Source: Escherichia coli (GTDB lineage: Bacteria > Pseudomonadota > Gammaproteobacteria > Enterobacterales > Enterobacteriaceae). From it: a stretch of 64,000 nucleotides of DNA. Positions 57,493 to 58,316 of the stretch are shown here, piece by piece; the first letter of the stretch is position 1, and every line of letters starts with the position of its first letter. The notes under the pieces are model-generated. The model saw nothing but the letters and a program-made list of their open reading frames with translations, made no database searches and was not told the DNA's origin. The position numbers were made by a program, and so were the translations under genes. The stretch lies in NCBI RefSeq assembly GCF_044647545.1, contig NZ_CP172818.1. One strand, written 5' to 3'.

Positions 57493-58316
57493 CTACAACT
57501 CATTCAGTATGTACTGGAACCGGCAAGTAGAATCGATTGGCTGCATACTGCTGGTATCAACACGCACGACCATATCGTGTAACTGTTTGTCCGTTATAGG
57601 GTGTCGATTTGGCGTGACCGAGACTTCCGCCTTGTCACATCCCGACGCGGTAAAAGTTATCATCTGTGCAACCCAGCGGCAGTAACCACCTGTTTCATTC
57701 ATCTGCGTACTGTCGCACAACTTCCCATCTTTCATCAAATACGTTGAAAGCGTTTTCTCAACCACACCGCCCGTCGACTGCAGGGTGAGCAGTTTTGACT
57801 TACTGACATAATTCTCATTCCATGAAACGTCATAAGGTTGAACAGCAGAAACGGATGGACAAATCGTGTCGTGACTATCAGGCCCCTGATACGTCACGCC
57901 CCTGGAGAGGCTTCAGAGTCATTCATAATAACCAACCATGGACAAGAAAAGTAAGATTCAATCTCTGCAGAGACAATAACCTCAAATCATAATACCCGCA
58001 GTTCCACCCAGACGGTAATCCAGGACAACTTGCTTTGTTGATATTTTGATGGTAGCCAATCAGCTTAACCGAAGGGCAGGAGGAGGACCACTCCAGCCCA
58101 CATTTTGCAATATTTCCCCAGTCATGAGCCATTGACTACTTTTATATTCACCAACGTACACTGCGGATGGCATCATTATTTTTAAATTAAAAGTCGCAAT
58201 ATTACGCGAATCACCGTTGTAACCGTAGAGCAAACGTCAACGCTATGCCCGGCAGCCATAGCTTCGGCAGCAGCAATAGACATGACCAGAGCGAACAACC
58301 ATCGTAGTATTTTCAT
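57493..58316 (-). pseudogene. yfcO: DUF2544-like gene with multiple reading-frame changes
   Basis: ATG at 58316 gives a signal-peptide-like MKILRWLFALVMSIAAAEAMA then stops after 44 codons; coding-like sequence continues in other frames (69-codon ORF 57923..58132, 134-codon ORF 57493..57897); total span 824 nt. Confidence 0.55.

Follow-up and report, generated by a model that had tools for sequence, protein, structure and literature searches.

What occupies positions 57493-58316 on the minus strand of the window (the whole 64,000-nt stretch of DNA analysed here): a set of small genes or one gene that has been broken, and, if the latter, what broke it? Alignment, tblastn and Pfam identified the interval as E. 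coli yfcO, the gene that closes the Yfc chaperone-usher fimbrial operon. The window is colinear with K-12 from nuoM to yfcV, including the gene order smrB-yfcO-yfcP-yfcQ-yfcR-yfcS-yfcU-yfcV; smrB and the yfc operon are convergent, and yfcO is the distal gene of the operon, adjoining smrB. The label 'adhesin' for YfcO derives from database naming and operon position, and 'fimbrial adhesin YfcO' is the annotation found in genomes among the matches listed (1,132 of 5,426 complete genomes matched by megablast). NCBIfam held no model matching YfcO, and a sequence search of the PDB returned no relative. Yfc is one of 12 chaperone-usher operons of MG1655 (PMC8174762). It is a core-associated E. coli fimbria that has been described as functional but cryptic, is repressed by H-NS in commensal strains, and was intact in all genomes of the survey by Wurpel et al. 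(PMC3559732).

The start of the gene is as an earlier note, made from the sequence alone, had described it. The ATG at 58316 begins 1 nt after the yfcP stop codon (TAA, 58320-58318), and its frame opens with MKILRWLFALVMSIAAAEAMAAGHSVDV, which on inspection looks like a typical Sec-type leader (K2/R5, a hydrophobic core and A-M-A); judged by eye, the leader MKILRWLFALVMSIAAAEAMA/AG is canonical in appearance. The frame closes after 44 codons at a stop at 58184-58182. The end of the gene is a TAG at 57493-57495, which gives a span (58316-57493) of 824 nt, against 822 nt for intact K-12 yfcO; the stated 2-nt departure from an in-frame gene was therefore correct. The only product that the ATG offers is the following.

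58182..58316, minus strand: sole product possible from the yfcO ATG, a signal peptide with an out-of-frame tail, 44 codons (ORF list and three-frame translation)

Since translation from the ATG ends after 44 codons, no YfcO could be made from the sequence as written.

Beyond this point, homology to YfcO persists to the end of the gene in changing registers. Three-frame translation placed the homologous stretches at 58316-58231, 58227-58077, 58075-57989, 57986-57903 and 57900-57493, in frames A-B-C-A-B. The pieces proposed in the earlier note were real, whereas the fourth stretch (FEVIVSAEIESYFSCPWLVIMNDSEASP, 28 codons, 57986-57903), which returns to the ATG frame and lies within no listed ORF, had been missed. 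The listed ORFs extend beyond their homologous parts through out-of-frame read-through. Matches to the StfH/YfcO family profile PF11245 (DUF2544) were obtained for the 57-aa ORF (profile positions 1-42, E = 2e-15), the 69-aa ORF (34-77, E = 2e-13) and the 134-aa ORF (112-246, E = 7e-78), all far beyond chance, and the gap between the fragment matches corresponds to the frame-A stretch at 57986-57903. Mapping the frame jumps by tblastn, as had been proposed, with K-12 YfcO as the query gave one colinear gene, with pieces 89-100% identical to the 273-aa protein. With indels left out, the nucleotide identity to K-12 yfcO was 99.4%, and the protein obtained by reversing the frameshifting indels was 98% identical to K-12 YfcO. 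Orthologues are single unbroken ORFs of 273-279 codons in 3/3 allele classes compared (K-12, B25FEP and MS6198), and intact yfcO is annotated in complete genomes with the K-12-type allele, among the matches listed.

To call the lesions, we aligned the gene base by base to the intact yfcO of K-12 and of strain E203449, which gave the following.

58227..58230, minus strand: lesion 1, CT->CTCT tandem duplication (+2), frame A to B (alignment)
58074..58076, minus strand: lesion 2, C4->C3 (-1), frame B to C (alignment)
57988, minus strand: lesion 3, AC->G (-1 with a substitution), frame C to A (alignment)
57899..57902, minus strand: lesion 4, G5->G4 (-1) within CCAGGGGG, frame A to B (alignment)
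57843..57848, minus strand: CTG->CTGCTG in-frame duplication (+3), adding one Ala (SVS-A-VQ) (alignment)
58266..58280, minus strand: 5 private substitutions in 15 nt of signal-peptide coding sequence (L13S, T16A, T17A) (allele comparison)

Together, the lesions change the length of yfcO by +2. The earlier note had recognised multiple frame changes and put their number at three or more; alignment gives four, plus the in-frame 3-nt insertion. Beside lesion 1, A->G at 58231 is a natural polymorphism common to strain E203449. The cluster of five substitutions was found in none of 21 other K-12-type alleles and in none of the 5,426 complete genomes. Ectopic gene conversion was considered as its source and rejected: the window holds no copy elsewhere, and the best match in the 5,426 genomes (49/54) lies at yfcO itself.

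Could the pieces be genes in their own right, a secreted 44-aa peptide followed by proteins of 57, 69 and 134 aa? Each frame is open and has a possible start codon. Against this, the pieces are colinear, frame-shifted parts of one 273-aa protein, the 28-codon homologous piece lies outside every listed ORF, the fragment sequences tested are absent from a collection of 15 billion proteins, and every orthologue examined is a single ORF. Alignment to orthologues thus refutes this reading. We give separate genes practically no credence. Frame changes that serve a function, through programmed ribosomal frameshifting or slipped-strand phase variation, would fit the position of two of the lesions in short G and C runs. 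However, these runs are merely 3-4 nt long, four corrections of differing sign and size would be needed with stops between them, no relative is shifted at any of these sites, and neighbouring genes have been struck likewise. A programmed frameshift or contingency gene was rejected for the same kind of reason, as there is no single conserved slippery site, only four unrelated sites with intervening stops. Functional frame changes are thus exceedingly improbable.

Full-length homology to an intact gene, frame-breaking lesions and intact orthologues in relatives are all present, as expected of a frameshift pseudogene, and at the level of sequence this call is secure. The 57-, 69- and 134-codon ORFs are, as their alignment indicates, out-of-register fragments of a single gene, which supports what the earlier note had said of its listed ORFs. 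The fragments match the PF11245 profile significantly, and the position in the operon is the canonical one; the ORF is not continuous over ~273-279 codons, being interrupted by 4 frameshifts. As it lacks an uninterrupted ORF, yfcO here would be no functional member of the StfH/YfcO family (PF11245) and is best described as the remnant of a family adhesin gene at its canonical locus. In annotation, 57493-58316 should be entered as a single yfcO pseudogene instead of several small ORFs.

The damage extends into the adjacent genes of the operon, as follows.

58318..58854, minus strand: yfcP remnant, with a complex -2 event at 58562-58569 (TAA after codon 97) and AG->C (-1) at 58470-58472 (tblastn and alignment)
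58851..59338, minus strand: yfcQ remnant, with TT->T (-1) at 58976-58978, shifted after codon 121, 138-aa product (tblastn and alignment)
59335..59823, minus strand: yfcR, an intact in-frame chimera with ~50 N-terminal codons of ST648 type and the remainder of K-12 type (tblastn and junction analysis)

In yfcP there is a premature stop and two frameshifts (net -3), and yfcO, yfcP and yfcQ together carry seven frameshifts over three adjacent genes. The reading frames of yfcR, yfcS, yfcU and yfcV are open. The parent alleles of the yfcR chimera are deeply diverged, and the chimeric protein (WP_400164282.1) is recorded on a single contig only. The usher gene yfcU (60612-63269, minus strand) is a full 885-codon ORF of ST648 type with ~75-79% DNA identity to K-12, where yfcU is an annotated pseudogene with an internal stop. 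Chaperone-usher assembly begins at the usher with the tip adhesin and adaptor subunits. With yfcP and yfcQ frameshifted as well, the genes left intact are yfcV, those for the usher and the chaperone, and the chimeric yfcR. Judged from this gene content, the Yfc locus as written should not build an adhesin-tipped fimbria, and the strain as sequenced would be expected to carry no such Yfc fimbriae.

The chimeric yfcR marks one edge of a replaced segment. Positions 1-25000 of the window are 100% identical (25,000/25,000 bases) to at least 10 complete genomes, MS6198 included, and 41000-57421 and 59674-64000 are 99.9% identical to MS6198. MS6198 belongs to ST648, phylogroup F (PMC8281228). Between the latter two blocks, the sequence is of K-12 type, as set out below.

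57413..59676, no strand assigned: K-12-type segment of 2,264 nt with 11 private lesion clusters, in place of a 4.3-kb segment of ST648 relatives (genome comparison)
57413..57421, no strand assigned: left junction, from ST648-type to K-12-type within TTGCCCTGA, which ends smrB (its last 9 nt, stop codon included) (junction analysis)
59674..59676, no strand assigned: right junction, within ATT, in a 20-nt patch ~85% similar between the yfcR alleles (junction analysis)
57456..57477, no strand assigned: hairpin GGCAGGGGC-ATTC-GCCCCTGCC with a 9-bp G+C-rich stem, between smrB and yfcO (sequence)

The sequence shared at the junctions amounts to 9 nt on the left and 3 nt on the right, and because the right switch point falls inside yfcR, that gene is an in-frame chimera. 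Apart from its lesions, the segment equals that of strain HS-01 (K-12-type), and 58979-59676 is lesion-free and wholly identical. No T-run adjoins the hairpin on either strand. Near it, a private +1/substitution lesion at 57446-57448 has turned CCATTACCCGTACC into the tandem CCATTAC-CCATTAC-C.

The 4.3-kb counterpart in ST648 relatives holds a Septu PtuA/PtuB pair (PADLOC, E = 1.6e-168 and 1.1e-94) together with StfH-type yfcO, yfcP and yfcQ. In MS6198, the Septu pair lies in the smrB-yfc interval at L005:16515-18516 and encodes a PtuA of 452 aa and a PtuB of 219 aa. The pair is absent from the window, where the equivalent site is the smrB/yfcO junction at 57421/57422. Septu is present in ST648 relatives and missing here, which makes the site between smrB and yfc a variable slot for defence islands. 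In E. coli, the operon is highly mosaic at its adhesin end, with several deeply diverged allele classes; the YfcO reconstructed here shares 98% protein identity with the K-12-type, 79% with the B25FEP-type and 46% with the StfH-type class. That only 1,132 of 5,426 complete genomes match K-12-type yfcO (megablast) suggests strong diversification or frequent replacement at this end of the operon. Laboratory contamination with K-12 was rejected as the source of the segment, as 58231 and 59047 carry natural variants of E203449/HS-01 and not the K-12 bases.

Next to the replacement itself, the segment and its surroundings carry differences that no other genome or metagenome among those examined shows. 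In all, there are 16 private event clusters, every one within 52154-63949: 11 in the segment and 5 in the ST648-type flanks, at most 5.3 kb away. With ST648 strain WP4-S18-ESBL-09 as the flank reference, the flank events are the following.

52154: 6-nt intergenic deletion, mnmC-yfcL
53745: A->C in yfcA
53766-53771: A6->A5, frameshift in yfcA
60695: substitution in the usher gene
63949: 1-nt deletion upstream of yfcV

The gene yfcA (53019-53824, minus strand), which codes for a membrane protein of the TauE/SafE family, loses its frame near codon 19 and has its substitution 21 nt from the A6 run; it is intact in K-12, MS6198 and WP4-S18-ESBL-09. By bit-score arithmetic, the flank differences, including those in yfcA, are shared by none of the 5,426 complete genomes. 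Among those genomes, the best match to the segment reaches 98.9%. The segment lesions are all missing from 21 other K-12-type alleles, of which 3 come from genomes and 18 from metagenome contigs, and only the natural polymorphisms at 58231 and 59047 are shared with other alleles. The +CT allele had no metagenome match, against 18 for the intact allele. The truncated YfcP and YfcQ and the chimeric YfcR were each found on one 4,499,902-bp contig among ~15 billion proteins. Natural allele polymorphism was accordingly rejected as the lesion source, with none of the lesions in the 21 K-12-type alleles or in B25FEP- or StfH-type alleles.

These events are densely clustered. The segment has 4.9 of them per kb and the adjoining flanks have 0.5, against nil in the other 52 kb; compared with ST648 relatives, positions 1-52153 show no private difference. 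The probability of all five flank lesions falling so near the segment is P = 9e-5, and that of 11 events in 2,264 nt at the flank rate is P = 2e-16. Relative to K-12, the window also has a ~23-nt deletion between cvpA and dedD (39359-39366) and an in-frame 12-nt deletion in dedD (39674). Of the two, at least the one in dedD is common to ST648 relatives (651 nt versus 663 in K-12), and these differences are therefore lineage polymorphisms that lie outside the burst.

Slow neutral decay leaves mostly substitutions, in lesions shared by a lineage. The spectrum here is of another kind, with indels in 12/16 private events, each of which is confined to this assembly. The seven 1-nt indels are without exception deletions, and in four cases a run of 4-6 identical bases is shortened. 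Within the segment, nine events include an indel and two are substitution-only, five have an indel beside adjacent substitutions, and substitution divergence is ~0.5%. The lesions are thus a local burst and not the residue of slow decay, and the earlier description of the gene as 'degraded' holds in the sense of disrupted and should not be taken to mean gradual loss. Shigella-style decay was likewise rejected, given an ST648-clone chromosome, 0 private differences in 52 kb and the indel-dominated spectrum, as was a mutator lineage, which would act genome-wide, since the lesions are restricted to ~12 kb. Taken together, we consider it very probable that yfcO is split by +2, -1, -1 and -1 frameshifts and an in-frame +3, that it yields no YfcO product, and that its lesions arose as a burst.

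As the lesions are private, rich in indels and also present in yfcP, yfcQ and yfcA, some or all of them may be errors of the consensus. Uncorrected long-read or low-depth consensus is known to yield spurious frameshift 'pseudogenes'. A local consensus error, through low depth, unpolished long reads or a mixed sample, is the most likely origin, and we put its chances at about even; if it is right, the real yfcO may be intact. The spectrum is error-like, in its 1-nt deletions, shortened homopolymers and indels with adjacent substitutions, and yfcA, intact in every relative compared, is broken at an A6 homopolymer. The junctions fall at the exact edge of alignable sequence, as expected from read clipping. 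On the other hand, 52 kb of the same window carry no private difference, which means that the assembly is generally accurate and that a special local cause is needed. In line with this, error throughout the assembly was rejected: tblastn allowed 55 K-12 genes in the window to be checked, and only four of them (yfcA, yfcO, yfcP and yfcQ) are frameshifted. Each of the +2, +3 and +1 insertions is a clean tandem duplication, resembling the outcome of real replication slippage. Also hard to square with a poor consensus are the 700 lesion-free nt of the segment next to the right junction (P = 0.017 under uniform lesions) and the RefSeq WP_ accession of the chimeric YfcR, which indicates that the assembly was annotated in RefSeq.

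The burst could instead be real and have arisen in one step, if a replicative, microhomology-mediated template switch (BIR/MMBIR-like) put K-12-type DNA in place of the Septu and StfH-type segment. Frameshifts are known to arise at high rates during break-induced replication, and where templates switch, the breakpoints are accompanied by nearby point mutations and indels. Such error-prone synthesis would mark the copied tract with frameshifts and complex mutations, and re-synthesised flanks more thinly. The events are indeed frameshift-rich and complex, their density drops from 4.9 to 0.5 per kb and then to 0 beyond 5.3 kb, and the junctions share just 9 nt and 3 nt despite hundreds of nt of 91-95% homology in smrB. 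Yet a poor consensus yields the same pattern more cheaply, junctions at alignable edges also fit read clipping during polishing, and the 700 nt beside the right junction are clean. Nor do we know of a bacterial precedent at such lesion density; no documented natural case with 16 lesions in 12 kb has come to our attention. We regard a template switch as unlikely, though second in rank after consensus error. The fuller proposal, that the 12-kb lesion zone is the true footprint of a single error-prone repair or recombination event in which the Septu island and adhesin end were swapped out and yfcO, yfcP, yfcQ and yfcA killed in one step, is speculative, and we give it little weight.

Alternatively, ordinary homologous recombination may have brought in the segment from an unsampled donor whose K-12-type yfcO, yfcP and yfcQ had already decayed. 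The crypticity of Yfc and its repression by H-NS in commensals (PMC3559732), together with the internal stop in K-12 yfcU, make relaxed selection plausible. A further point in favour is the highly mosaic adhesin end of the operon. Since the SNPs at 58231 and 59047 are natural polymorphisms, the donor would have been a natural allele and not K-12 itself. Neutral decay in such a donor, however, should give far more substitutions than indels, the reverse of the nine to two found in the segment, and no such allele occurs in the 1,100+ complete genomes, the 18 metagenome contigs or the 15-billion-protein collection. Nor would a decayed donor explain why the ST648-type flanks carry private lesions rich in indels, with yfcA among the sites hit, or why the crossovers lie just where homology ends. 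We consider this origin improbable. With consensus error as the preferred reading, pseudogene counts and inferences of 'gene decay' from this region call for caution, as they could rest on such errors; should the burst be real, E. coli would offer here a rare natural case of allelic replacement that is both microhomology-mediated and mutagenic.

How does the locus compare with known systems? Its closest counterpart is K-12 yfcO, the last gene of yfcOPQRSUV, with which it shares the locus beside smrB, the gene order and the Pfam family; it differs in a frame broken four times, five private substitutions in the signal-peptide region and an ST648 chromosome. The StfH-type YfcO of its ST648 relatives is more distant, at 46% protein identity. 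Like BIR/MMBIR footprints, the locus combines microhomology junctions with frameshifts and complex mutations that cluster around the replaced tract; no natural allelic replacement in E. coli is known to us to have left such a footprint. It also resembles the spurious frameshift pseudogenes of long-read or low-depth assemblies, in its excess of 1-nt deletions, its shortened homopolymers and the breakage of the conserved, housekeeping-type yfcA, and is unlike typical consensus errors in being confined to ~12 kb beside a flawless 52 kb and in its clean 2- and 3-nt tandem duplications. With disrupted cryptic chaperone-usher operons, such as those catalogued by Wurpel et al. (PMC3559732) or that of K-12 with its yfcU lesion, it has in common loss-of-function lesions in a core-associated operon at a conserved position. 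Those operons typically carry one lesion or IS insertion that is shared by a lineage, whereas here seven frameshifts occur in one assembly, as a burst. Frameshifted genes are commonplace in cryptic fimbrial operons, and as a pseudogene yfcO is an ordinary case. What stands out is only the private burst around an allelic replacement bounded by microhomology, and poor data are a likelier source of that burst than biology.
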